This document shows positions 6,237 to 23,596 of a DNA stretch of 37,700 nucleotides, piece after piece (position 1 is the first letter of the stretch; each line of letters starts with the position of its first letter). The notes beneath the pieces were generated by a model. The model did not search any database and had not been told where the DNA came from. It saw nothing but the letters and a program-made list of their open reading frames with translations. The DNA comes from a virus (taxonomy: Duplodnaviria > Heunggongvirae > Uroviricota > Caudoviricetes): IMG/VR virus record IMGVR_UViG_2541047736_000004, positions 1 through 37,700 of that record, one strand, 5' to 3'. The translations under genes and the position numbers were made by a program.

Positions 6237-6913
6237 CGCCATTGCTCCCCAAATACAAAACCAATTTCAGCCAGTGCCTCGTCCATTTTTTCGATGAACT
6301 CCGGCACCATCTCGTCAAAACTCGCCATGTACTTTTCATCCCGCTCAACCACGACATAATGCAGTCCTTCACGCTTCATACGCGGGTCATAGTTGGCAAA
6401 GTACCAGGCATCTTTTCGTGTCACCCACATGCTGTACTGCACCTGGGCCATGTAAGCCGACTTTATGGCCTCGAAACCACCGAGCCGGAACTTCATGAAA
6501 TCCCGGGAGGTAAACGGGCATTTCAGCTCAAGGCCATTGCCGTTACTGCATAAACCATCGGGAGAGCAGGCGGTGCGCATACTTTCGTCGCGATAGATGA
6601 TCGGGGATTCAGTAACATTCACGCCGGAAGTGAATTCAAACAGGGTTCTGGCGTCGTTCTCGTACTGTTTTCCCCAGGCCAGCGCCTTAGCATTAACTTC
6701 CGGAGCCACACCGGTGCAAACCTCAGCCAGCAGGGTGTGGAAGTAGGACATTTTCATGTCAGGCCACTTCTTTCCTGAGCGGGGCTTTGCTATCACGTTG
6801 TGAACTTCTGAAGCGGTGATGACGCCGAGCCGTAATTTGTGCCATGCATCATCCCCCTGTTCGACAGCTCTCACGTCGATCCCGGTACGCTGCAGGATAA
6901 TGTCCGGTGTCAT
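6233..6913 (-). CDS. exo: Lambda exonuclease (Red-alpha), 226 aa
   Basis: Near-identical to lambda Exo as recalled; overlaps bet stop. Confidence 0.95.
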
Positions 6914-7695
6914 GCTGCCACCTTCTGCTCAGTGGCTTTCTGTTTCAGGAATCCAAGAGCTTTCACTGCTTCGGCCTGTGTCAGTTCTGACGATGCGCGA
7001 ATGTCGCGGCGAAATATCTGGGAACAGAGCGGCAATAAGTCGTCATCCCATGTTTTATCCAGGGCGATCAGCAGAGTGTTAATCTCCTGCATGGTTTCAT
7101 CGTTAACCGGAGTGATGTCGCGTTCCGGCTGACGTTCTGCAGTGTATGCAGTATTTTCGACAATGCGCTCGGCTTCATCCTTGTCATAGATACCAGCAAA
7201 TCCGAAGGCCAGACGGGCACACTGAATCATGGCTTTATGCCGTAACATCCGTTTGGGATGCGACTGCCACGGCCCCGTGATTTCTCTGCCTTCGCGGGTT
7301 TTGAATGGTTCGCGGCGGCATTCATCCATCCACTCGGTGACGCAGATGGGATGATTGCGGTCCTTGCGGTAAATCCGGCATGTACAGGATTCATTGTCCT
7401 GCTCAAAGTCCATACCATCAAACTGCTGGTTTTCATTGATGATGCGGGACCAGCCATCAACGCCCACCACCGGAACAATGCCGTTCTGCTTATCAGGGAA
7501 GGCGTAAATTTCTTTCGTCCACGGATTAAGGCCGTACTGGTTGGCGACGATCAACAATGCGATGAACTGCGCATCGCTGGCATCACCTTTAAATGCCGTC
7601 TGGCGAAGAGTGGTGATCAGTTCCTGTGGGTCGACAGAATCCATGCCGACACGTTCAGCCAGCTTCCCAGCCAGCGTTGCGAGTGCTGTACTCAT
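6910..7695 (-). CDS. bet: Lambda Bet (Red-beta) single-strand annealing protein, 261 aa
   Basis: Near-identical to lambda Bet as recalled. Confidence 0.95.
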
Positions 7696-7700
7696 CCGTT

Positions 7701-7997
7701 TTATACCTCTGAATCAATATCAAACTGGTGGTGAGCAATGATTTCAACCATGTACCGGATGTGTTCTGCCATGCGCTCCTGAAACTCAACATCGTCATCA
7801 AACGCACGGGTAATGGCTTTTTTGCTGGCCCCGTGGCGTTGCAAATGATCGATGCATAGCGATTCAAACAGGTGCTGGGGCAGGCCTTTTTCCATGTCGT
7901 CTGCCAGTTCTGCCTCTTTCTCTTCACGGGCGATCTGCTGGTAGTGACGTGCCCAGCTCTGAGCCTCAAGACGATCCTGAATGTAATAAGCGTTCAT
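7701..7997 (-). CDS. gam: Gam (RecBCD inhibitor), 98-aa short form
   Basis: Matches lambda GamS ([21 protein letters not shown]...). Confidence 0.9.
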
Positions 7998-8072
7998 GGC
8001 TGAACTCCTGAAAATGGCTGTGAAAATATCGCCCGCGAAATGCCAGGCTGATTAGGAAAACAGGAAAGGGGA

Positions 8073-8483
8073 TTAGTGATTCAGGCCGTTACCGCGTCCG
8101 TCGAGAAAAACTTCCACGAGCAAATCACGGGTATAAGTGCGCTCGATGCCGCGATGCAGATATAGCCGTCCGCGTAAATTAGCTGATGCAGTCCAGGTAC
8201 CATCTTTGTGTTTGACCAGCATTCCTGGCATGACCGCACCTCGATTAACGGTCTGCGTTCCGTAATGTTGATGAACCATAAAAACTCCTGCCCGTAAGCT
8301 GGGCTGCTGAACATATAGAGACTTCTGCGCGTATTCAGGCGGTGGATGGCCGCCGGTTGTCATAACTAAGTCGCCTCGTTGAAGCGACTGAGGTATGAAG
8401 TGTTGAGTTGATTTCAGCTGGTCACACCGACGTTCACGCGTCCGCTTCACCCCTCGCACTCCCCGGAGCCTGCTGAAATTCAA
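8073..8483 (-). CDS. Candidate N-like antiterminator, first gene of the pL operon (non-ATG start; alternative GTG at 8450)
   Basis: First ORF downstream of the pL-like promoter; Arg-rich N-terminal segment KRTRERR resembles the lambda N ARM (TRRRERR); otherwise no recognisable similarity. Confidence 0.3.
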
Positions 8484-8544
8484 GCTGCGGATCTAAGCGG
8501 TCATCGCAACGGTGAATCAGGTGATTGCCGTATCGTTGTGTTGT

Positions 8545-8625
8545 TGCGATGAATTCATTTAAAACTATAGTTGTTTTATCGTCAACAACAAAAGTTGTTT
8601 TATTGGTTGTTTTAGATATAACTGG
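8545..8625 (-). promoter_or_regulatory. pL-like promoter with OL operators
   Basis: Minus-strand GTTGTTGACGATAAAACAACTATAGTTTTAA is paralogous to the pR region; repeated GGTTGTT/AACAACC half-sites. Confidence 0.55.
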
Positions 8626-8717
8626 TTGTATTTAAGATGGATTTATTTTGTGACTTGCATCGCATAGCGATAACTGAAGCGAGGTCGTGGTGGTTTTTTG
8701 AACGGTTTGTGTGATGA

Positions 8718-8748
8718 GGGGAGGCAAAAGAAAACCCGGCACTGGGGC
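8718..8748 (-). terminator. Left half of the immunity-operon intrinsic terminator, split by IS4
   Basis: With IS4 and one duplication copy removed, the minus strand reads AAACCCGGC-cccagt-GCCGGGTTT followed by TCTTTTGCC; IS4 sits in the loop. Confidence 0.55.
8737..8748. repeat. IS4 target-site duplication, left copy (CGGCACTGGGGC)
   Basis: 12-bp direct repeat directly flanking both IS4 ends. Confidence 0.85.
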
Positions 8749-10174
8749 TAATGCCAGTCAGTTAAGCAACTGACTGGCTCTTTTTCGGGGCTGTGGGGTA
8801 TTTCCAGGGCCTCTCCTTTACCACTCTCGGGAAGGCCCTTTCCCTTCTTGTCGGTAATTTCACAAGTTGTCCCATACTTGCAAGATCGCGCATCAGCTCC
8901 GGTATACGTCCCGGTGAAGCGCCCTGCAATGTCATCAGCATTCTCATCACCATTCCGCATGATTCTGAGAAACTCAGTTGATTCGGCCAGTAACCTTTCA
9001 GATGTTCCGCCATTTTAATCATCTGATATCTCACCAGATTATAAGCCAGTAAGACACCCCACAGCTCTTGCTCCACAAGCTCCGGCTTTTTACTTCTCAG
9101 CGTCAGCCTGCTCCGTTGCATCGTCTGTTTTATCTCCCTGTATCCCAGTTCGATTTCCCAGCGATGACTGTACAGATCCCCCATTTCTCCTCCGGGGAAG
9201 CGCATGGCGTCCGTCATCGACGTCAGCAGATGGCAGACTTTTCCTTTGCGCGTCACGGTCAGCAGGCGGGCAGTCACTTCATTTCCCAGTCCCGGCCACT
9301 TTTTTCGTGCCTGCGGGCTGGTTTTCAGCTTCACCAGATGATCGCCTTTACCCAGTTTTCTGATCTCTTCATATTGCGCTCCCTTTCTGAGAGGTATCAT
9401 CCAGTGGCGGTGTTCTCCCGCCAGGCTCCAGGCATTTAACAGTCCCAGTGAGTAATAACCTTTATCCATTAACGTCAGAGTGTTATCGCCGGTTTGTTCT
9501 ATAAGTTGCTCAGCAAGCTCATTTTCGCTGTTCTTCATCGTGCCGAAGGCTGCAGCCGTCAGCAGATGGCTGGTCAGTTCCATCTGGCAGACCATTTTGA
9601 CCTGCGGGTAGAGCGCCGGGTTCCCGGCATGTGTCTGGCGGGGGAAGGCTGCATCGTTCTCTGGTGTATCCGGTGTGCGCCAGAACACACCATCGATGGC
9701 CAGCAGGGTCAGGCCGCACCAGTGCGGATGCGGCGTGGCGTTATGCCAGAGCTGCGCTGTTTTCGTGAACACGCGGCGGACAGCCTCACTTCCCAGGCGC
9801 TGGCGGGCCTGAATAACGGCACTGGGGGCAACGAAGGGGCGATTGCCCGGCAGCATGATGTCCAGGCGATTCACAATCTGGTGAAGAGGTTCTTTACGCT
9901 CAAGCGCCATGCCAACAATACACCAGACCATCATTTCGAGGGGAAGACGGCGCTTGCGTAGCGTTACAGTACCTGATTCGGCAAGGCAACGAGAGATGAG
10001 TTCGGGGTCGAGGTAATCCCCCAGAGAAGTCAGTGGGTTACGCAGAGAATCGTAACGGGATACCAGATCAAGAGCCTGTCCAATGTGCATAAAAAAATCC
10101 GGAAACAAGTGAGCGTTTCCGGATTCTTACACAGCCACTGGATCGGTCAACTGATCCTTAACTGATCGGCATTA
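8749..10174 (-). mobile_element. Insertion sequence IS4, complete (1426 bp)
   Basis: Terminal inverted repeats TAATGCCAGTCAG... and ...CTGATCGGCATTA; encodes the IS4 transposase; flanked by a 12-bp duplication. Confidence 0.95.
8762..10090 (-). CDS. insG: IS4 transposase (442 aa from MHIGQALDL start)
   Basis: Recognised as the IS4 transposase (DDE family); the supplied ORF carries a 6-codon upstream extension. Confidence 0.9.
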
Positions 10175-10186
10175 CGGCACTGGGGC
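10175..10186. repeat. IS4 target-site duplication, right copy (CGGCACTGGGGC)
   Basis: Identical to 8737-8748. Confidence 0.85.
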
Positions 10187-10193
10187 CGGGTTT
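10175..10193 (-). terminator. Right half of the IS4-split terminator
   Basis: Carries the GCCGGGTTT stem strand that pairs with AAACCCGGC at 8732-8740. Confidence 0.5.
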
Positions 10194-10268
10194 AGATGGA
10201 TAAGAAAGGGTAATAGGGAATGAAAAATCGCTTTGCGTAATGCAAGGTGGCGAGCAGTTTCTTAAGCA

Positions 10269-10709
10269 CTAAAGAAAAAAGTACATTGATAGCTTATAAA
10301 GACCTGTTCCTGCAGCGATGATTGCTGGAACACCAAGCAATACCGCAAGCTTTGCGTCTGAAATCTTTCTATCGACAGCATCGATGGAGGGTTTTTTGGC
10401 TAGTGAATCTTTTATTGAATCGAGTCGCTCCAGAACAGCGATCATGTTTCTGTCGATAGATTTGACATCTGTCTTAAGCTCATCAACGTCACGTCGGATA
10501 TAGGACACATCAGACTCAAGCTTTGCAACTTTCGATTCAAGCACATTATTACTCCCAGAGCCACCGCTACCACTTGATTGTAGCATAGGTACATTACCGC
10601 CAGACATACCAGCTGATTGAGAAAATGCTGCAGTGTGCAAAGATGATGATCTTGCCGCTTGTTCAAGCTTTTCAGTTAGGTTTGGAGCTTCGTAATAACC
10701 GTGTTTCAT
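10269..10709 (-). CDS. Hypothetical tail-anchored membrane protein with coiled coil (146 aa), rex-position cassette gene 2
   Basis: Gly/Ser-rich linker, heptad-like coiled-coil segment, single C-terminal TM helix (LAVLLGVPAIIAAGTGLYKLSMYFFL); follows the 89-aa ORF after a 8-bp gap, co-oriented with cI. Confidence 0.55.
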   Translation of the reverse strand: MKHGYYEAPNLTEKLEQAARSSSLHTAAFSQSAGMSGGNVPMLQSSGSGGSGSNNVLESKVAKLESDVSYIRRDVDELKTDVKSIDRNMIAVLERLDSIKDSLAKKPSIDAVDRKISDAKLAVLLGVPAIIAAGTGLYKLSMYFFL

Positions 10710-10717
10710 TGTTAATA

Positions 10718-10987
10718 TTATGACTTATTGGTTTTAGCTCTATCATGCTGATCGCGAATAAAGTCAGCGAGTTTAAGCATTAAATCTTCCGTCATGCGAA
10801 TTGTTGCAATGTTGTACTTTACGTTTTCAGTGTCATTACTACCATCAGCGCCCCATTCTGTAACATGCTGAAAGAAAGATATGGAGCCTAAGCGATCGTC
10901 ATCTTCCCCAAAAGATGAATATCCAAATGCATCAGCATATGCATCTACACAGTTATTTGATTTTTTTATAAGTTTTTTATCACTCAT
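10718..10987 (-). CDS. Hypothetical small acidic protein (89 aa), rex-position cassette gene 1
   Basis: ORF immediately downstream of cI on the same strand; no recognised domain. Confidence 0.5.
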   Translation of the reverse strand: MSDKKLIKKSNNCVDAYADAFGYSSFGEDDDRLGSISFFQHVTEWGADGSNDTENVKYNIATIRMTEDLMLKLADFIRDQHDRAKTNKS

Positions 10988-11066
10988 TTTTGCCTTTCCC
11001 GTAATGTTATTTTTATAAAGAATTCTTTCAGCGCATTACCCAAAAGCCTCATCAGCACGCAGCTGA

Positions 11067-11756
11067 TTATCCGTGTTTCCTATACGTCTGCGGCATACTG
11101 CCAATAACCTTCCCGAAAATGAACACCCGGTTCATCTCGTCTTTCTCGATCGGGTCCCACGGTGAGTAGCTCTTGTTATCAGAGATAACCAGTAGCTTAT
11201 CTTTCATCATTTGCAGGCGCTTTACATGGGCTGTGTCGTCGTACAGAAACGCATAGATACCATCACCGTCGAAAGATTTAACCGTGATATCAACGAACAG
11301 CAGATCACCTGGTTCGATCGTTCCTGACATGCTGTCACCACGCACGTTAATGATGCGGATATTTTCCGCCTTCCTGCCATCGAACATGTGACGAGCATCG
11401 TCAAACGAGTACTCAACCGAGCGTAGAACTTCTACAAACTCACGGTTGATTACACCCGGCCCGGCACTGACTTCTATATCAAGAACGTCAATTTTGAAGT
11501 ATTTGGAATGGCTGACAGTTGATTGTATTGGTTGCACTGTACTGTCTGACATATTTCCAACGCCAGAAGATAACCATTCTGCGCGCACACCCAAAGCGTT
11601 CGCGATCTCCACGATTTTAGTTGTTTGGTTAGCTTTCCCTGTTTCGATTTTCTGAATAGCAGCCTGGCTAACCCCGACCAAATCCCCAAGCGCCTTTTGT
11701 GTAAGGCCTCGCGCTAATCTGGCTTCTTTAAGTCTTTCTGAGAGTGTTGTTTTCAT
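11067..11756 (-). CDS. CI-type prophage repressor, HTH-XRE plus S24 LexA-like peptidase (229 aa from MKTTLSERL)
   Basis: N-terminal HTH (LTQKALGDLVGVSQAAIQKIE), Ala-Gly cleavage site (SAGPG), Ser and Lys catalytic motifs (GDSMSGT, HVKRL); the internal ATG at 11756 is preferred because the upstream extension would cover the OR palindrome. Confidence 0.85.
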   Translation of the reverse strand: MKTTLSERLKEARLARGLTQKALGDLVGVSQAAIQKIETGKANQTTKIVEIANALGVRAEWLSSGVGNMSDSTVQPIQSTVSHSKYFKIDVLDIEVSAGPGVINREFVEVLRSVEYSFDDARHMFDGRKAENIRIINVRGDSMSGTIEPGDLLFVDITVKSFDGDGIYAFLYDDTAHVKRLQMMKDKLLVISDNKSYSPWDPIEKDEMNRVFIFGKVIGSMPQTYRKHG

Positions 11757-11860
11757 AGACCAAATGTACAACCAAGGTTTTATTTCATCAAACGAAAATG
11801 GTTGTTGACTAAAAACAACCATAGTTTTAATCTTGATTCGGATTAACCACGGAGGTTGTT
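11757..11860. promoter_or_regulatory. OR operator / pR-pRM divergent promoter region
   Basis: Palindrome TGGTTGTTGACTAAAAACAACCA at 11799-11821 with embedded -35 TTGACT; candidate -10 in TAGTTTTAAT upstream of cro. Confidence 0.6.
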
Positions 11861-12091
11861 ATGAACCCAGCAATCAAAACAGCGATCAATATCGTTGGTT
11901 CACAAAAGAAACTAGGCGATGCCTGCGAAGTTTCACAGCAGGCCGTCTATAAGTGGCTTCACAACAAAGCAAAGGTATCCCCTGAACATGTCGGCAGCAT
12001 TGTTACGGCTACTGGTGGAGTTGTGAAGGCATACCAGATTCGCCCGGATCTTCCGAAGTTGTTTCCACACACCGAAAAGAACGCAGCTTAA
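11861..12091 (+). CDS. Cro-like / YdaS-family HTH regulator (76 aa)
   Basis: Small HTH protein divergent from cI; resembles Rac-prophage YdaS as recalled. Confidence 0.7.
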   Translation: MNPAIKTAINIVGSQKKLGDACEVSQQAVYKWLHNKAKVSPEHVGSIVTATGGVVKAYQIRPDLPKLFPHTEKNAA

Positions 12092-12160: not shown

Positions 12161-12700
12161 ATGCAACCACTTACATACCAACAGACTAGCGGATTTATTC
12201 CGACTGCGGTGATAAATCGTTCTCAAACAAAACAAGCTCCAGGCCACGAAAAAATCCGTGATGCCGTCCGCGCCTGGTCGGCTGTAGATAATCAGGATGT
12301 CGTTGCCGCACTCATTGTGAATGAGTATCGGGAGCAGGGCGACGGCACCATCGATTTCCCTGATGATGTCAGCCGTGCACGCCAGAAGCTGTTCCGCTTC
12401 CTCGATAACAAATTCGATTCTGAAAAATACCGAAATAACGTGCGTGAACTGACCCCGGCAATTCTGGCGGTACTACCGCTGGAATATCGCGGTTACCTGG
12501 TTGAGCAGGATAGCTTCATGACTCGGTTGGCTGAAATGGAAAAGGAACTCAGTGAGGCAAAACAGGCTGTCATTCTCAACGCACCACGCCACCAGAAACT
12601 GAAGGAAATTAGTGAAGGTATTGTGTCGATGTTTCGTGTGGACCCAGATCTGGCTGGTCCATTGATGGCGATGGTTACTACCATGCTGGGGGCGATATGA
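12161..12700 (+). CDS. YdaT-like protein in the cII position (179 aa)
   Basis: LTPAILAVLPLEYRGYL matches the Rac YdaT segment IPAILAILPRELR as recalled. Confidence 0.55.
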   Translation: MQPLTYQQTSGFIPTAVINRSQTKQAPGHEKIRDAVRAWSAVDNQDVVAALIVNEYREQGDGTIDFPDDVSRARQKLFRFLDNKFDSEKYRNNVRELTPAILAVLPLEYRGYLVEQDSFMTRLAEMEKELSEAKQAVILNAPRHQKLKEISEGIVSMFRVDPDLAGPLMAMVTTMLGAI

Positions 12701-14563: not shown

Positions 14564-15229
14564 ATGAAAATCATACAGTTACAAATGGTATTTTTTTACG
14601 ATTCATCAACGACTGTCGATTTCGATGGAATGTCGTATTTTATTAGGCAAACTTTTAAAAAGAAGGCAGGTATTGAATTAACAAACAATATGATGTTGGG
14701 CGTTTTACCTATGGATACCCCACCAGAGATTCCTCGTCTCCAATTGTTTTCTATAGATAATAAATTTAGAGTTCAATGCTCACTGCAGAGATGTGATTTG
14801 TTTTTTGAACGTATGGATTCTGAGCAAGAGGTAGACTTACATTTGTTTCAAGAAGTTTTCGATAGTGTGGTTGATATCCATAAAGAACTCAATAAGGATA
14901 TTATCAGAATAGGCTTGGTGGCCGTTAAGGCGGAATTAAACAACAACCCAAACAAAGAGATTGTTAAAAACTATCTTAGTAACAACATGCAGAATGATAG
15001 CGAAATAATTGAAGATATTAATTTAATGTATAATAAAAAATTCGAGTTTGAGCAGTCCATATTTAATTGTCATTTGTCGATTATGTCAGGATATGATATT
15101 GTCAGAGAACAACCAATGCTAGTGAAACAGATCGATGTGAATACAATCGAGAGTTTTATATTTAAAGATAAATATACCGCAGAAAAAACAAAAAAAGCCT
15201 TTTTAAGTAAAGTGAATGAAATTCAGTAA
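14564..15229 (+). CDS. Hypothetical soluble protein (221 aa), AT-rich island gene 1
   Basis: ORF in strongly AT-rich DNA; no recognised motif. Confidence 0.55.
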   Translation: MKIIQLQMVFFYDSSTTVDFDGMSYFIRQTFKKKAGIELTNNMMLGVLPMDTPPEIPRLQLFSIDNKFRVQCSLQRCDLFFERMDSEQEVDLHLFQEVFDSVVDIHKELNKDIIRIGLVAVKAELNNNPNKEIVKNYLSNNMQNDSEIIEDINLMYNKKFEFEQSIFNCHLSIMSGYDIVREQPMLVKQIDVNTIESFIFKDKYTAEKTKKAFLSKVNEIQ

Positions 15230-15243
15230 TGTGAGGTGGCTGA

Positions 15244-16203
15244 ATGAATAAGGATGATAATAAAAAGGATATAAAAAGAACTGCAAAAAATAATGCTATA
15301 GTCAACGATGACATGGCAAAAAGAACTGCGCATCATTCACTTTATTCTAATTCACAAGTATCGAATAGTACATCTACGTATACAGGAGGGGTACAAAAAA
15401 TTAGTAATTTGCAGATAGATAATAAAACTGCAACAGCTTCAAATAAAGAGCGGGAAAGTATATCCATCAAAGACGCGGCACCACAAAAATTAATAAAAAC
15501 CTCTCTTTTTGTTAATGAAAAAGAAATGTTGCATGAAGCTATAAAATACAGTTCAAAAGCAACTGTGCCGGTGATGGATAATACTGTCTCTAATGCCATT
15601 TTATCTAATTACTTTGTTAATAATAATTCTGAATCTACAATTTCTTTTAATAAAGAGAATGTAAAAAAATATACAAAAAGTGATATTGATAACATCCTCT
15701 GGAAAAATACCAATGATCAACTAACCAATTTTTCGCAAGAGTTGAATAAGAGCAAAAAGAATATTAATGATACTAAAAGAAAAATAGGTAAGGTAATGTC
15801 TTCATTATCTCAGCAAACTGCAAAGATTGAGCAATTTGATGCAACATTATCAAATGCTGAAAAAGATATACATGAGAAAGTTAAAAGCTTTGAATCGGAA
15901 GTAATTACAGCAAGGAACTCAATGCTGGGTGTCATTGCTTTATTTGCTTCTTTCTTTACTTTCATTTCTATTTCAGTAAACGTATTTTCTCGCGATATGT
16001 CTTTAAGCATGTCAATCTCAGTTTTGTTAGTGATATGGTCGTGCTTAATTAGCTTTATCTTTGTTTTTATGGCAGGAATTAGCAAGGGAGGAGCTTTTTT
16101 TACAAGCTCATCATTTATTAAGCATGCCATTTTTATGGTTGTGCTTTTTATTTCATCTTTCGCACTCCCTAAAGTTATTTTTAATATCTTTGCAATTAGC
16201 TGA
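15244..16203 (+). CDS. Hypothetical membrane protein (319 aa), three C-terminal TM helices, AT-rich island gene 2
   Basis: Asn/Lys/Ser-rich coiled-coil-like N-terminal region; three hydrophobic helices in residues ~230-315; starts 14 bp after gene 1. Confidence 0.55.
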   Translation: MNKDDNKKDIKRTAKNNAIVNDDMAKRTAHHSLYSNSQVSNSTSTYTGGVQKISNLQIDNKTATASNKERESISIKDAAPQKLIKTSLFVNEKEMLHEAIKYSSKATVPVMDNTVSNAILSNYFVNNNSESTISFNKENVKKYTKSDIDNILWKNTNDQLTNFSQELNKSKKNINDTKRKIGKVMSSLSQQTAKIEQFDATLSNAEKDIHEKVKSFESEVITARNSMLGVIALFASFFTFISISVNVFSRDMSLSMSISVLLVIWSCLISFIFVFMAGISKGGAFFTSSSFIKHAIFMVVLFISSFALPKVIFNIFAIS

Positions 16204-16315
16204 CTATCAGATGTTATCTTCAGTTGTTTAGGGTTGATTTAAAAGCGAATCTTAATATTTTCAAGTTTTGAATTTAGAAATAAAAAAGCCATAATATTGT
16301 CATCGGAGCCTAAAA

Positions 16316-16420
16316 AACTCCGGTGACTTCTGCGCTAAACGGGGACGTTTATGCGCACACACAATCCAAACTCTCATCTCCATTCACAGATGCAGAAATG
16401 CACCTACGATTTTTTACATT
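16316..16420. repeat. Direct repeat copy A (~105 bp, ~95% identical to 18250-18354)
   Basis: AACTCCGGTGACTTCTGCGCTAAACGGGGACGTTTATGCGCACA... occurs twice, flanking the Bro-N / 169-aa module. Confidence 0.85.
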
Positions 16421-16834
16421 CGGTGTTTTACTTCGACAGCCAGAATTGGGAGTCTCTATTCGTCTGGCGGCTAAAGGTGATATGGAAATCGTTATGTTTT
16501 GGCCTGAGGTAGTTGTAACTGTTGTAGCAGCTATGGCTGTGATCATCATGGTGTCCATTTACTGGGGTTGACGACATGATTTATCCGGCGCTATATTCTG
16601 TGCGTTGCCGCAAAATCGGCACACGGGATTGGCGTCCCGGGATACTACTCAACGCATACCGCGTTAAGCGGTTTTTTTGTGCGCTAAGCACGGCTATGCC
16701 CAAATTATGGTGGGCTGTGTGAGGGCTTCTTCGGAAGCGCCGGGTTTGAGTAGCCGGTTACGCCAACCTTACACAGTTCACCACCAGTCGATTGGCGTCG
16801 TTGGTGGTGATGGTTAACCTGATGAGGTGATACT

Positions 16835-17443
16835 ATGACTACTCAATTAGCATTCCACAAAACGACGTTTACCCCGATTTGCCACAATAACAGAATTTGG
16901 CTTACTGCCACTGAAGTTGGTTTAGCACTGGAATATGCGGACGATAAAGCAGTTCAGCGCATTTACTCTCGGCACTCAGATGAATTCACAGATATGATGA
17001 CAAGGGTGGTCAAAGTGACCACCCCTCGTGGAATGCAGGAGTCTCGAGTATTTAGCCTTCGCGGAGCCCATTTGATCGCCATGTTTGCTCGTACTCCTGT
17101 GGCCAAAGAATTCCGCCGCTGGGTTCTGGATATTCTCGATCGAGAAGTTCAACAATCCCCAATCACAAAACAATTCACTGATAACGAACTTTGCACACTC
17201 GCCTGGTTATGGCGAGCAAGTGATACGATGTTAACCGCCTGCCAGAACGTTACGCCCCTTCTTCAGGTCGCAGAGCATCGCGAAGCAGGTAGATTCACTT
17301 CAATCGAACAAGAATATCCTCGGATACTCAACAGGGCGCGAGAAATCCTTGCCAGAGAAACGGCGCATGTAAAATTCCAACCGTGGCAGGATGATAAGTG
17401 GAGTCGTGTGTTACCATATTTCCGTCAGAATCTGTTGCAATAA
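16835..17443 (+). CDS. Bro-N domain antirepressor-like protein (202 aa)
   Basis: N-terminal pattern FxxxxxxxRxxxxxGEPWF-like (ICHNNRIWLTATEVGLALEY) typical of Bro-N/KilA-N proteins. Confidence 0.6.
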   Translation: MTTQLAFHKTTFTPICHNNRIWLTATEVGLALEYADDKAVQRIYSRHSDEFTDMMTRVVKVTTPRGMQESRVFSLRGAHLIAMFARTPVAKEFRRWVLDILDREVQQSPITKQFTDNELCTLAWLWRASDTMLTACQNVTPLLQVAEHREAGRFTSIEQEYPRILNRAREILARETAHVKFQPWQDDKWSRVLPYFRQNLLQ

Positions 17444-17678
17444 AGTCACTAGTTAGAAATACTGCCAGCATTCTGCGATGACGGAAGTGCTGGCATTTTT
17501 TTTGGTAATGTGCGAGTCCATTTCATAAAATACGGGTACTGGAACTGGACGATATAATCTAAAAGATACCATTATCAGTAGCATTAAAATCGCTATGTGC
17601 CGATACGGATATAAATTATATTGATTGTTCACATACCTTATTGGATATTACTGAGGGGTGTTTATATAAGGTGTAACG

Positions 17679-18188
17679 ATGATGTGGAACTTTGACAGTG
17701 CCGACTTAAGTGCAATAGCAGCAGGCATTTCTGCGTTTGGCACATTAGCCGCAGCGGGGTCGGCGCTTGCAAGTTGGTACACGTCAAAAAAAGCGCTGCA
17801 GCTACAAAATAGAGTTTACCTTTATGAGTCTTTAAAGGCTTGCGCTGAGAGAGCCAATTCATCAGCTAAAGATAAGCGCGGATCTGAATGGAGCGTTAAT
17901 GATGCAGCGGATATCATCAGGTGCCTAGTACGGGCGATGGAGATCATCAAGCAGGATAGCCAGCAGAAAGAAGGTAATCAGGCATTAATGTTGAAACAGT
18001 ACTTTGTTAATCTGCTAATAATGGAACTGTACGAGGAAGTTCATAACGGTGATGCGGCTGATTCTGTTTTTAAAAGTACGGAACCTACACAAGTACTTGA
18101 TAACTTATGGAGCAAATGGCAGGAGGCTATAGCTTTTTTTGATATTTGGAATTACCCAGTTGCGACTGAGGAAGACTTGGCAGACTAA
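17679..18188 (+). CDS. Hypothetical protein with N-terminal hydrophobic helix (169 aa)
   Basis: ORF with a plausible RBS (AAGGTG); residues ~9-31 hydrophobic (LSAIAAGISAFGTLAAAGSALASWY); no recognised domain. Confidence 0.45.
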   Translation: MMWNFDSADLSAIAAGISAFGTLAAAGSALASWYTSKKALQLQNRVYLYESLKACAERANSSAKDKRGSEWSVNDAADIIRCLVRAMEIIKQDSQQKEGNQALMLKQYFVNLLIMELYEEVHNGDAADSVFKSTEPTQVLDNLWSKWQEAIAFFDIWNYPVATEEDLAD

Positions 18189-18249
18189 TTTTCAGCACAT
18201 TTGATTTCCAATAATCAACCAGCCATAATCATGCCATTGGAGCTTGAAC

Positions 18250-18354
18250 AACTCCGGTGACTTCTGCGCTAAACGGGGACGTTTATGCGCACATACAATC
18301 CAAACTCTCTTCTCCCTTCACAGATGCAGAGATGCACCTGCGATTTTTTGCATC
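18250..18354. repeat. Direct repeat copy B (partner of 16316-16420), directly upstream of ninB
   Basis: See copy A. Confidence 0.85.
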
Positions 18355-18382
18355 CAGCGTTTGACCTCTGCGGAGGTGAAGC

Positions 18383-18838
18383 GTGAACCTCCCACAAGAC
18401 GGCATCAAATTGCATCGTGGTAACTTCACTGCTATCGGTCAGCAGATCCAGCCTTATCTGGAGGAAGGCAAATGCTTTCGCATGGTGCTTAAACCGTGGC
18501 GTGAGAAACGCAGTCTTTCCCAGAATGCACTCAGCCACATGTGGTACAGCGAAATCAGTGAATACCTCATCAGCAGGGGTAAAACGTTCGCCACTCCAGC
18601 TTGGGTAAAAGATGCTCTCAAACACACATATCTCGGTTATGAAACCAAAGACCTGGTTGATGTCGTAACCGGTGATATCACCACTATCCAGTCGTTACGC
18701 CATACCTCCGATCTTGATACCGGAGAGATGTATGTCTTCCTGTGTAAGGTTGAAGCCTGGGCGGTGAATATTGGCTGCCACCTGACTATTCCGCAGAGCT
18801 GCGAGTTCCAGCTGCTCCGCGACAAGCAGGAGGCGTAA
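18383..18838 (+). CDS. ninB: NinB-family recombination protein (151 aa)
   Basis: [20 protein letters not shown] resembles the lambda NinB core (RSLDQNRKLWACLGDVS). Confidence 0.7.
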
Positions 18839-20444: not shown

Positions 20445-21527
20445 TTAGAACTGGTAAACCATACCTACAGCAACGATATCATCGGTAGCAACGCCAGATG
20501 CTTTCGTGAAATCGCTCTTATCAATCAGGTTGATTTTGTAATCAACAAAAGTGGACATATTTTTGTTGAAGTAATAGGTTGCACCTACATCAATATATTC
20601 AACCAGGTCCTGATCACCCCACGCACCCAAGTCTTTTCCTTTAGATTGCAGGTAAGCAACGGACGGACGCAGACCGAAGTCGAACTGATATTGTGCAACT
20701 ACTTCGAAGTTTTGTGCTTTGTTGGCAATATGGTTATTACCAAAAACAGTCATGTTCTGGGTTTCAGAATAGGTGGTAGCCAGATAGATGTTGTTCGCAT
20801 CATATTTCAGACCAGCTGCCCATACTTCAGCATTTTGACCAGATGCATTCAGGCTGTTGTTACCGTAGATAACCTGATTATTAGTGCGGTCAGATTTAGC
20901 ATAGGTTGCACCTACACCGAATCCTTCATACTCATAAGTAGTGGAGAAACCGAAACCATCACCATTAGCTTCAGTTACGTCAGTGCGGTCATTTTTACCC
21001 TGATACTGAGCAGCAAAGTTCAGACCATCAACCAGACCAAAGAAGTCGTTGTTACGATAAGTTGCAACACCAGTGGTGCGACCAGTCATGAACACATCTG
21101 TTTGGGTCCAGGTATCGCCACCGAATTCTGGCAGAACGTCAGTCCACGCACCGATGTCGTATGCTACACCGTAGTTACGGCCGTAATCGATTGAGCCGTA
21201 GTCACCGAATTTCAGGCCTGCAAATGCAAGACGGGTTTTGTCTTTGGAGGAACCTTGAGATTCAGCGCGGTTGCCTTTGAATTCATATTCCCACTGACCG
21301 AAACCAGTCAGTTGATCGTTGATTTGGGTTTCACCTTTGAAGCCAAGACGGGCATAAGTAGTATCACCATCATCTGCATCATTAGAGGAGAAGTAGTGCT
21401 TAGCATTAACTTTCCCGTACAGATCCAGCTTGTTACTGTCTTTATTATAAATTTCAGCTGCCTGAGCAGACATCGCCATCAGTACTGATGCAGCTACAGC
21501 AGAAATTGCCACTGTTAATTTTTTCAT
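20445..21527 (-). CDS. nmpC: Outer-membrane porin of the OmpC/OmpF family (360 aa), prophage moron
   Basis: Signal peptide plus typical porin beta-barrel sequence ending in F; recognised as NmpC of DLP12-type prophages; antisense to the late operon. Confidence 0.9.
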
Positions 21528-21955
21528 CGTGAGCCCTTTTTTTTGAACTATTATTAAAAAATGATGTCACTGCGCGATAAATATTCATCTAATCAATGTG
21601 ATTATTTCAAGATGTAAGTTTTGGTTTCTCGTTTGATTTGTGAAGTAGATCTCTATTTTTATCTGAACTTTTTTCTATCGAATCCTATTCATAGCTCTTG
21701 GCTGAATAAAAATAAATCTATTAGCCAATTTATATTAACGGCTGTTATTTATAAGTGCTCTATAATTTGAAGGTTCAATTTAAATCGGCTAAAAATAACA
21801 CTGGAAATTATTTGTTGGTTATTTGTTGAGATTTGCTTATGTATTTGTAGTGGTGTTTTCAATACTCGGTAGCATTCTCGCAAATATCATTTAGTGGTTT
21901 ACGTACGTAAAAAATTGGTTATGCTGTTAAGAGTGGTTACTTCGTCACACAGCTT

Positions 21956-21988
21956 AAACCCGCCGTCGAGCGGGTTTTTCCATTTTTT
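21956..21988 (+). terminator. Intrinsic terminator upstream of the lysis cassette (tR'-like candidate)
   Basis: Plus-strand hairpin AAACCCGC-cgtcga-GCGGGTTT followed by TTCCATTTTTTG. Confidence 0.5.
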
Positions 21989-22100
21989 GAGTCTCGATAT
22001 TAGCTGATAACCCAATACCTGAGTTATTCACTGACTCCGAGTCTGTTACGTTTCGTAGTATTCCCTCAATTTACACCCGCTTTGTCTGCGAGGTGGGGTT

Positions 22101-23302: not shown

Positions 23303-23596
23303 TTATTGTGAGCAATACACCCGCGCTTCCAGCGGAGTATAAATGCCTAAAGTAATAAAACCGAGCAATCCATTTACGAATGTTTGCTGGGTTTCTGTTT
23401 TAACAACATTTTCTGCGCCGCCACAAATTTTGGCTGCATCAACAGTTTTCTCCTGTCCAATTCCCGAAACGAAGAAATGATGGGTGATGGTTTCCTTTGG
23501 TGTTACTGCTGTCGGTTTGTTTCCAACAGTAAACGTCTGTTGAGCACATCCTGTAATAAGCATTGCCAGAGCGGCAGAAAACAACATTTTTTTCAT
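23303..23596 (-). CDS. bor: Bor lipoprotein (97 aa from MKKMLF)
   Basis: Near-identical to lambda Bor as recalled, with lipobox ITGC. Confidence 0.9.
   Translation of the reverse strand: MKKMLFSAALAMLITGCAQQTFTVGNKPTAVTPKETITHHFFVSGIGQEKTVDAAKICGGAENVVKTETQQTFVNGLLGFITLGIYTPLEARVYCSQ

Follow-up and report, generated by a model that had tools for sequence, protein, structure and literature searches.

Two copies of a long direct repeat flank an antirepressor module in the nin region of a lambdoid prophage, and both copies carry a leader that in related phages precedes the recombination gene ninB. The window, by which we mean the whole 37,700-nt stretch analysed here (IMG/VR record IMGVR_UViG_2541047736_000004, positions 1 to 37,700), is a DLP12/phage-82-like lambdoid prophage of Escherichia coli. 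E. coli strain 2024CK-00188 carries a 100% identical segment. PGAP orders its genes as replication O, P, two hypothetical genes, a P22AR-domain protein, a hypothetical gene, a 33-amino-acid (aa) hypothetical gene, ybcN, ninE, ybcO, rusA, ylcG, quuD, ompC, essD and onward.

A repeat search returned a single long direct-repeat family, whose two members, copy A and copy B, are offset by 1934 nt and 87% identical across 156 nt (Table 1). A sequence-only reading of this DNA had noted near-identical repeats of about 105 bp. These are real: in register, 16316-16420 and 18250-18354 agree at 98 of 105 positions (93.3%), with 95% identity over the first 100 nt (16316-16415 in copy A). The homology dwindles leftward of ~16287 and rightward of ~16434. 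The window contains a 29-nt core pattern at exactly two places, against an expectation of 0 from 100 shuffles. A covariance model built from the leaders of other phages also matches exactly two window sites, both on the + strand, at 16295-16422 (77.6 bits) and 18229-18356 (80.2 bits). As the same reading had it, the copies flank a Bro-N gene and a 169-aa gene, and copy B lies directly 5' of ninB (ybcN). It reaches the GTG start of that gene at 18383.

Table 1. The two leader copies, the module between them and the first gene downstream, in window coordinates
Feature	Position	Strand	Detail and basis
Promoter-like site, copy A	16268..16295	+	TTGAAT, 16-nt spacer, CATAAT; consensus scan
Copy A of the direct repeat, a paralogous leader of ninB type at the head of the inserted module	16279..16434	+	repeat search; covariance match, 77.6 bits
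Hairpin H1, copy A	16300..16326	+	9 bp, loop CCUAAAAAA (variant of conserved CCUGAACAA); single-sequence fold; helix 1 covariation at 10/10 pairs
Hairpin H2, copy A	16331..16357	+	GGGA loop is the mini-ORF Shine-Dalgarno; ATG 16351 in 3' arm; fold, covariation
orf33'-like mini-ORF of copy A	16351..16512	+	53 codons; ninB-coupled end lost, overruns the membrane-peptide ORF start
Conserved block, terminator-like hairpin H3' and U-run, copy A	16385..16413	+	stem weakened by G>A at 16406
29-aa hydrophobic peptide ORF	16482..16571	+	MEIVMFWPEVVVTVVAAMAVIIMVSIYWG, with AAGGTGAT upstream; phrog_4612
isrK promoter-like site	16568..16597	+	TTGACG, 18-nt spacer, TATATT; 10/12 match; consensus scan
IsrK small RNA	16606..16678	+	terminator hairpin 16658-16672 and U-run; Rfam RF01394, 58.7 bits vs gathering 50; terminator scan
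C4-type antisense RNA	16703..16788	+	orf45/STnc1160-equivalent region of Gifsy-1; Rfam RF01695, 74.8 bits vs gathering 45
Antirepressor (AnrP/Ant-like, 202 aa)	16835..17443	+	Bro-N E = 4e-10, P22_AR_C E = 2e-17; PHROG anti-repressor families; PGAP
Intrinsic terminator after the antirepressor gene	17462..17503	+	GC-rich stem and U8; fold -22.3 kcal/mol, z = -3.4
169-aa cargo gene, variable slot	17679..18188	+	hydrophobic N-terminus; phrog_1779 only
Promoter-like site, copy B	18201..18229	+	TTGATT, 17-nt spacer, CATAAT; consensus scan; phage 82 putative -35/-10
Direct repeat copy B, canonical ninB leader	18213..18368	+	repeat search; covariance match, 80.2 bits
Hairpin H1, copy B	18235..18259	+	fold, covariation; phage 82 'possible regulator-binding site'
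Hairpin H2, copy B	18265..18291	+	GGGA loop is the Shine-Dalgarno; ATG 18285 in 3' arm; equals phi80 IR4; fold, covariation
33-codon mini-ORF (phage 82 orf33), copy B	18285..18386	+	TGA overlaps ninB GTG (GTGA); PGAP coding sequence; homologues
Conserved block, terminator-like hairpin H3' and U-run, copy B	18319..18347	+
Hairpin H4	18357..18384	+	pairs the ninB Shine-Dalgarno (GGAGG 18372-18376) and start codon; local folds
ninB/ybcN	18383..18838	+	Orf-family recombination mediator; first gene of the ybcN-ninE-ybcO-rusA-ylcG-quuD operon

Covariation points to a structured leader RNA

The repeat is predicted to fold into two recurring hairpins. Eight single-sequence folds all contain the same H1 and H2 hairpins, with z-scores of -2.3 to -7.2, and both window copies fold this way. 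A covariance model trained on 15 sequences of one subtype recovers all other subtypes. Across 57 distinct sequences, aligned by fitting to the proposed structure, 96% of cells pair and 25 of 30 pairs change on both sides, with covarying pairs numbering 10 of 10 in H1 and 9 of 10 in H2. None of 500 shuffles attains any of the covariation measures, and registers slid along the alignment pair in 26-34%. H1 and H2 together hold ~89 G.U cells against 26 non-pairs, an excess that argues for an RNA of the + strand over a DNA palindrome. By this comparative evidence, the repeated sequence is under structural selection.

The signal is less certain in the H3 region. A small hairpin farther downstream, H3', shows few compensatory events (L131, L154), and its loop is replaced in three loci (L146, L165, L198). 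We rejected a long H3 hairpin as an antiterminator alternative, since its covariation was no better than that of shuffles.

Anatomy of the leader

We drew the anatomy of the leader from 120+ IMG/VR loci plus genome loci. At its head lies a promoter-like site. Among 99 unique homologues, 75 have TTGATT as the -35 box and 90 have a 17-nt spacer; the -10 box occurs as CATAAT, AATAAT, CATACT or TATAAT. A palindrome, TTGATT-N6-AATCAA, overlaps the -35 box, and its perfect copy in leader B (TTGATTTCCAATAATCAA, 18201-18218, +) is a candidate operator. Palindrome half-sites are kept in most leaders, and some leaders carry an alternative palindrome, ATCATTTTTCAAAAGTGAT. The -35 box and palindrome of copy A are degenerate because AT-rich foreign DNA abuts there; other A copies retain TTGATT...AATCAA.

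The hairpins that follow keep their loops while their stems drift. The H1 loop, CCUGAACA, is kept across the family and its stem sequence varies freely. H2 stems fall into at least five unrelated sequences around a constant GGGA loop, which is the Shine-Dalgarno (SD) sequence of a short open reading frame (ORF). The ATG or GTG of this mini-ORF sits at a fixed position in the 3' arm in every variant, the two window copies included.

The mini-ORF is maintained as a reading frame and not as a peptide. It spans 31-33 codons, its frame is open in all homologues and the other frames contain stops, and its length changes in multiples of 3. In ~116 of 126 instances its stop codon and the start codon of the next gene share an ATGA or GTGA. 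Copy B has this overlap (GTGA, 18383-18386); copy A lacks it and runs into different sequence. Variable sites are spread evenly over codon positions without third-position excess, and divergent leaders keep the ORF and change its product, so we rejected a conserved orf33 peptide. For the same reasons, it appears that the act of translating the mini-ORF is under selection.

Two further elements lie at the distal end. A conserved block inside the mini-ORF, CACAGATGCAGAAATGCACCTGCGATTTT, could form the small H3' hairpin followed by a U-run. A terminator consensus scan flags 18325-18342 and its T-run, where the stem is weak with few compensatory changes. Beyond it, hairpin H4 occludes the translation start of the next gene: local folds pair the SD of that gene in 72 of 75 unique homologues.

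The leader is widespread and usually precedes ninB

The sequence-only reading had treated the repeat as a conserved linker at a recombination junction and had named a widespread conserved gene start as the case that would refute it. The repeat does prove to be such a gene start, functional and made of promoter, structured leader and orf33 before ninB, and is no neutral linker. Of 5426 complete E. coli genomes, 2750 contain the leader sequence, usually in one copy, and K-12 with its DLP12 prophage is among them. In K-12, the sequence spans a 33-aa coding sequence between ybcM and ybcN, known as ylcH. The leader also occurs in phages 82, phi80, HK639 and HK225 and in Enterobacter and Klebsiella phages. 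Sampling through the NinB protein, and not through the leader, placed it 5' of ninB in Citrobacter, Siccibacter, Enterobacter and Phytobacter genomes. At the Pantoea and Rosenbergiella loci located by the same protein, it was not upstream of ninB.

Parts of the leader have been annotated before. Copy B is 88% identical across 150 nt to phage 82 (X92588), whose record marks a putative -35/-10, an inverted repeat ('possible regulator-binding site'), a ribosome-binding site (RBS) and orf33 before orf151, the ninB homologue. The phi80 record labels as IR4 the part that corresponds to hairpin H2. Phage 82 and K-12 DLP12 are single-copy relatives, each record holding one leader. Neither window copy matches any family in Rfam 15, at the gathering threshold or at E <= 5. 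A literature search found no function for the leader, and searches for ylcH yielded chemical-name noise or gene lists only.

Among 126 instances, the next gene is a YbcN-type NinB in 70 and a lambda-type NinB in 42, and ~8 show the copy-A arrangement. In a second sample, anchored elsewhere, leaders again run into ninB. The sole exception is locus L206, whose second leader copy is directly coupled to a gene for a Q antiterminator (Pfam Antiterm). Because leaders couple to ninB and, in L206, directly to Q, the leader is a portable head for genes en route to Q. The two L206 leaders lie 4.1 kb apart (6872-11919) and bracket a tail-fibre-like gene, a gene with an S-type pyocin/cytotoxic domain and a small ORF; the first of them precedes an apparently truncated ninB.

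The bracketed module is an isrK-C4-antirepressor unit with variable cargo

Between copy A and the Bro-N gene lie two Rfam-level RNA genes, isrK and C4, that were absent from the earlier reading. A match to c4-a1b1, the targets of C4 RNA, at 16591-16643 (+) reaches 39.6 bits, below its gathering threshold of 46.7, and overlaps the 5' part of IsrK. This overlap suggests that the a1b1 region of P1-type immI operons has its counterpart in IsrK. A 46-codon ORF in the orf45 frame (16677-16817, +) ends with TAA at 16815-16817, 18 nt short of the antirepressor ATG. An ATGA is still present at 16835-16838, though the orf45 frame closes earlier.

The slot between the antirepressor gene and leader B holds variable cargo. 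In the window it contains the 169-aa gene, whose product has no match in Pfam, PADLOC or NCBIfam; a promoter-like site lies 5' of it at 17502-17531. In L125 and L004, a HEPN-domain gene with a hypothetical gene, or other ORFs, take its place. Strain NIID080884 has a HEPN-domain gene and a hypothetical gene, and phage IdasGreatGrand has small ORFs. L096 and L026 have the slot as well.

Two candidate mechanisms involving the module were rejected. No recombinase or transposase domain was found in the ORFs of the segment (Pfam, PHROG), and the repeat is an imperfect, pre-existing functional element of 105-156 nt, which together do not fit insertion by a transposon, an insertion sequence or an integrase. 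Nor do IsrK or C4 appear to pair with the leader: duplex energies resemble those of shuffles (z -1.0 to +1.5), as judged by RNAduplex, which is crude on long RNAs.

Copy A is a leader fused to a membrane-peptide ORF

Copy A fits the covariance model end to end and departs from all ninB leaders past ~codon 25 of the mini-ORF. Its mini-ORF extends to 53 codons, past the start of a 29-aa hydrophobic peptide ORF. In NIID080884, PGAP calls the equivalent mini-ORF a partial pseudogene missing its C-terminus. The 29-aa ORF occurs as two alleles that differ by an in-frame 6-nt indel, and it has a premature stop in loci of the enterohaemorrhagic E. coli type (L085/L125). PGAP leaves it unannotated, and its stop falls within the -35 box of the isrK promoter.

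An 82-aa ORF at 16323-16571, which the sequence-only reading took for an orphaned 5' gene fragment, is present as a mechanical ORF and is no gene remnant. Its frame has stops in 19 of 25 and in 52 of 52 homologous leaders and shows no codon periodicity, so we rejected it as a real gene. Four of five substitutions between copies A and B are synonymous in this frame, a chance pattern given that the frame is closed across homologues. The conserved frame of the repeat is the other one, starting at ATG 16351 and ATG 18285. The 82-aa ORF is a chance fusion of a non-conserved leader frame with the 29-aa ORF.

The layout recurs, and the module comes and goes at the leader

Many genomes share the order leader A - peptide - isrK - C4 - ant - cargo - leader B - ninB. 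Eight copy-A loci extend far enough to be judged, and in each of them a copy B follows 1.9-2.5 kb downstream. The isrK-containing stretch follows copy A in 308 complete E. coli genomes, and 112 carry the full 2.18-kb segment. The sequenced, functional phages PhiR26_1 and IdasGreatGrand show the leader-module-leader layout as well. Phages with this layout differ in cargo and are only 81-91% identical.

The slot to the left, between P/ren and leader A, varies too. It holds an AT-rich two-gene cassette in the window and a DUF4041 gene elsewhere (PD-lambda-1 in PhiR26_1). The window cassette (14564-16203, +, between P and leader A) has 28-34% GC against ~45-54% in its flanks. The only matches of its two ORFs, 221 and 319 aa long, are phrog_24110 and phrog_25335, families without an assigned function. 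The second protein has C-terminal hydrophobic helices, and neither protein has a match in PADLOC or NCBIfam. It may be an uncharacterised defence or exclusion cassette, because related phages hold the DUF4041 gene in this slot.

The A copies form a lineage of their own. Copy A of the window shares 100% identity with the A copy of strain B2 and 95% with the A copies of L026 and L096, against 91% with its own copy B. A and B of L026 are only 76% alike because B has a different H2 type. Since A copies are nearer to the A copies of other genomes than to their own B, the duplication by this comparison is old and travels with the module.

Natural alleles with and without the module exist. Among E. 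coli genomes with the DUF4041/PD-lambda-1 left flank, 46 are empty, their one leader running into ybcN, and 83 are occupied by leader A and the module; empty and occupied loci are otherwise ~98% identical in their flanks. The single leader of the empty locus L031 resembles A in its left part and B in its right part, and the switch falls in a ~30-nt stretch shared by A and B, within H2, as homologous recombination inside the repeat would predict. Gain and loss of the module by homologous recombination at the leader is supported by these comparisons, since the alleles share their flank and the switch lies inside the leader. The idea that the segment arose by insertion or duplication through recombination at the repeat therefore holds as far as recombination goes, and the duplication was neither recent nor local. 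The proposed loss of the segment between its repeats likewise finds its empty sites at the DUF4041 flank. The window's own left flank occurs in ~21 genomes, all occupied, and the 5426 complete E. coli genomes contain no predicted deletion product.

A leader proposed to meter its operon and carry cassettes

We consider it probable that the two repeats are paralogous copies of a conserved cis-regulatory ninB leader, that copy A heads an inserted antirepressor cassette and that recombination between leaders inserts or deletes this cassette precisely. Precise exchange would follow from having a leader at both cassette ends. Promoter activity, coupling and terminator logic are predicted from the sequence. 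The leader would consist of a sigma-70-type promoter (TTGATT-17-CATAAT) under a palindrome, H1, H2 gating orf33, a terminator-like block and H4. Transcripts from this promoter or from upstream would carry H2, which would hold the mini-ORF start. Ribosomes that start on the mini-ORF, gated by H2, would melt H4 and reinitiate at the overlapping ninB start, a form of translational coupling. Translation through the conserved block probably also stops the weak terminator-like hairpin from forming.

In this scheme, the leader would throttle or meter entry into the operon from ninB to Q. Such a metering role would be comparable to that of the lambda nin-region terminators, and it fits the one leader, in L206, that is coupled directly to Q. 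Copy A matches this leader as far as ~codon 25 of the mini-ORF, where an old fusion joins it to the 29-aa membrane-peptide ORF. It now heads a cassette made of the peptide ORF, a Gifsy-1/P1 immI-type isrK-C4-antirepressor unit with its own promoter and terminator, and variable cargo. There it would likewise gate the membrane peptide and read-through into the antirepressor unit.

Several points weigh against this reading. Coupling may be partial, since the SD of ninB itself is strong. Expression of the chromosomal rusA of K-12 is reported to be low (PMC12844172), and little expression would thus reach the downstream genes of that cryptic prophage. The promoter and terminator calls are consensus matches whose number in the region equals chance. 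Fitting the covariance alignment to the proposed structure somewhat inflates its counts; independent folds and a raw MAFFT alignment agree with it. The first set of loci was chosen through the H3 block, which overstates H3 conservation, and neither H3 model has solid covariation. Copy A may work poorly in the window, given its degenerate -35 box and palindrome and the mismatch in its H3' stem. The missing deletion product for the window's own flank belongs here as well.

Two proposed inputs to the leader were rejected. The PR'-like region 5' of essD and the leader share no motif, which does not fit Q acting on the leader promoter. That region is a likely PR'-tR' unit upstream of essD (21880-21990, +), with TTTACG-17-TATGCT and then a terminator, AAACCCGCCGTCGAGCGGGTTTTT. 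A site for HusR (YnfL) reported 'upstream of rusA' sits in ybcO and not at the leader (PMC12844172).

A broader proposal is tentative, and we regard it as possible though doubtful. The leader RNA might be a structured cis-regulatory class not described before, present in about half of E. coli genomes, that a trans factor reads through the invariant H1 loop CCUGAACA and the H2 hairpin; candidates are the first product of the operon, another phage protein or a small RNA. Reused as a portable cassette head, it could place the antirepressor, ninB and even Q under one post-transcriptional switch, which would then govern both the lysis-lysogeny antirepressor and the path to late-gene expression, and duplicated leaders could serve as landing pads for defence-like or toxin cargo.

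The leader might instead be mainly a small RNA gene, in which promoter, H1, H2 and an H3' terminator yield a trans-acting RNA of ~115 nt and the mini-ORF is incidental or the RNA dual-function like IsrK. We judge this unlikely. The conserved promoter-like site, the terminator-like hairpin and U-run ~115 nt downstream, and a second copy away from ninB would all suit such a gene. So would H1, whose conserved loop on a freely covarying stem is what a recognition loop should look like, and a K-12 transcriptome study lists ylcH RNA as a separate entry (PMC8910356). However, the ORF frame, its start in H2 and the stop/start overlap survive indels in multiples of 3, H4 and SD occlusion link the element to control in cis, and the H3' hairpin is weak and poorly supported. 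We found no target, and the leader gave no sign of pairing with IsrK or C4.

That a recent duplication or insertion at this locus left an orphaned 5' gene fragment (the 82-aa ORF), the repeat being a neutral linker and the segment unstable, is very unlikely and largely refuted already. It would account for copies that are 93% identical around a discrete 1.9-kb segment, for the truncated-pseudogene label that PGAP gives the copy-A mini-ORF of a related genome, and for the empty sites at another left flank. It does not account for an 82-aa frame closed in most homologues, for A copies nearer to A elsewhere than to their own B (76% in L026), or for a layout common to ~300 genomes and to phages of 81-91% identity with different cargo. 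The structural selection on the repeat and the lack of an empty variant for the window's flank also speak against it.

In a further rival reading, a dimeric regulator would bind the inverted repeats as operators at the DNA level, as suggested for phage 82, and the repeat would be a duplicated operator-promoter region and no RNA element. This is very improbable: the phage 82 annotation of a 'possible regulator-binding site' and the sequence-conserved palindrome over the -35 box favour it, but the H1 and H2 stems vary freely with pairing kept, the ~89 G.U cells would turn into A.C mismatches if the sequence acted as DNA or from the opposite strand, the conserved parts are loops and not arms, and the -35 palindrome, itself quite plausibly an operator, falls in copy A beyond the well-conserved stretch of the repeat.

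Other genes in the window

Three genes outside the segment merit mention. On the opposite strand, an OmpC/NmpC-type porin gene (20445-21527, -) separates quuD from the lysis genes. A lipoprotein gene of the iss/bor type (23303-23596, -) follows the lysis genes, and both are placed as in DLP12-type prophages. These are morons with possible host-fitness roles. A gene at the cII position upstream of O (12161-12700, +) encodes a YdaT_toxin domain (Pfam E = 2.6e-30).

Implications

Read as a cis-regulatory leader that is also a site of cassette exchange, the repeat bears on annotation and on phage biology. The 82-aa ORF should not be called, and the copy-A mini-ORF is best annotated as a leader remnant; isrK, C4 and the 29-aa peptide ORF sit in DNA that appears intergenic. 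The locus is a sequence-level example of a regulatory leader that doubles as homology for cassette entry and exit in the nin region. The cassettes exchanged include antirepressor modules, cargo of no assigned role, and HEPN-type and pyocin-type genes, and natural empty and occupied alleles document the exchange. Very common and strongly covarying, the leader is a candidate for a covariance-model family.

Comparison with known systems

The closest known counterparts are the orf33 region of phage 82 (X92588) and its K-12 DLP12 equivalent. Both share with copy B the -35/-10, the inverted repeat, the RBS and a 33-codon ORF overlapping the ninB start, and both have the gene order ybcN-ninE-ybcO-rusA-ylcG-Q of the window. 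Their records hold one copy and describe no more of it than a putative promoter, an inverted repeat and a hypothetical ORF, whereas the window adds a second copy detached from ninB.

The joints of lambdoid mosaics, with their conserved boundary sequences, belong to the modular-exchange model. Here, too, conserved sequence flanks interchangeable cargo, and empty and occupied alleles differ by a crossover inside it; the pyocin-type cargo of L206 is a second example. The window differs in that the shared sequence is a functional, structurally constrained leader of ~130-190 nt and not a short neutral linker.

The module itself resembles Gifsy-1 isrK-orf45-anrP and P1/P7 immI c4-icd-ant. The bracketed segment likewise combines an IsrK that has a leaky terminator and a promoter of its own with a C4-type RNA at the place of orf45 and an antirepressor of the Bro-N/P22AR type. 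In Gifsy-1, short IsrK activates translation of the read-through mRNA through an upstream ORF (Hershko-Shalev et al. 2016, PMC4825925). The Gifsy-1 unit lies downstream of the Q-like antQ, whereas that of the window lies between the replication genes and ninB. The Gifsy-1 orf45 stop overlaps the antirepressor start (AUGA), whereas the orf45-frame ORF of the window ends before the ATG. Unlike the Gifsy-1 unit, that of the window is preceded by a leader copy and a membrane-peptide ORF.

Leaders that couple through an upstream ORF, such as orf45-anrP (PMC4825925), share with ours a short ORF whose peptide is not conserved, a stop overlapping the next start and an RBS-occluding hairpin; coupling by the present leader is a prediction from sequence. 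Overall, the locus is ordinary lambdoid mosaicism built from known parts, and what is fresh is the shared sequence itself, a leader RNA with strong covariation and without a match in Rfam.

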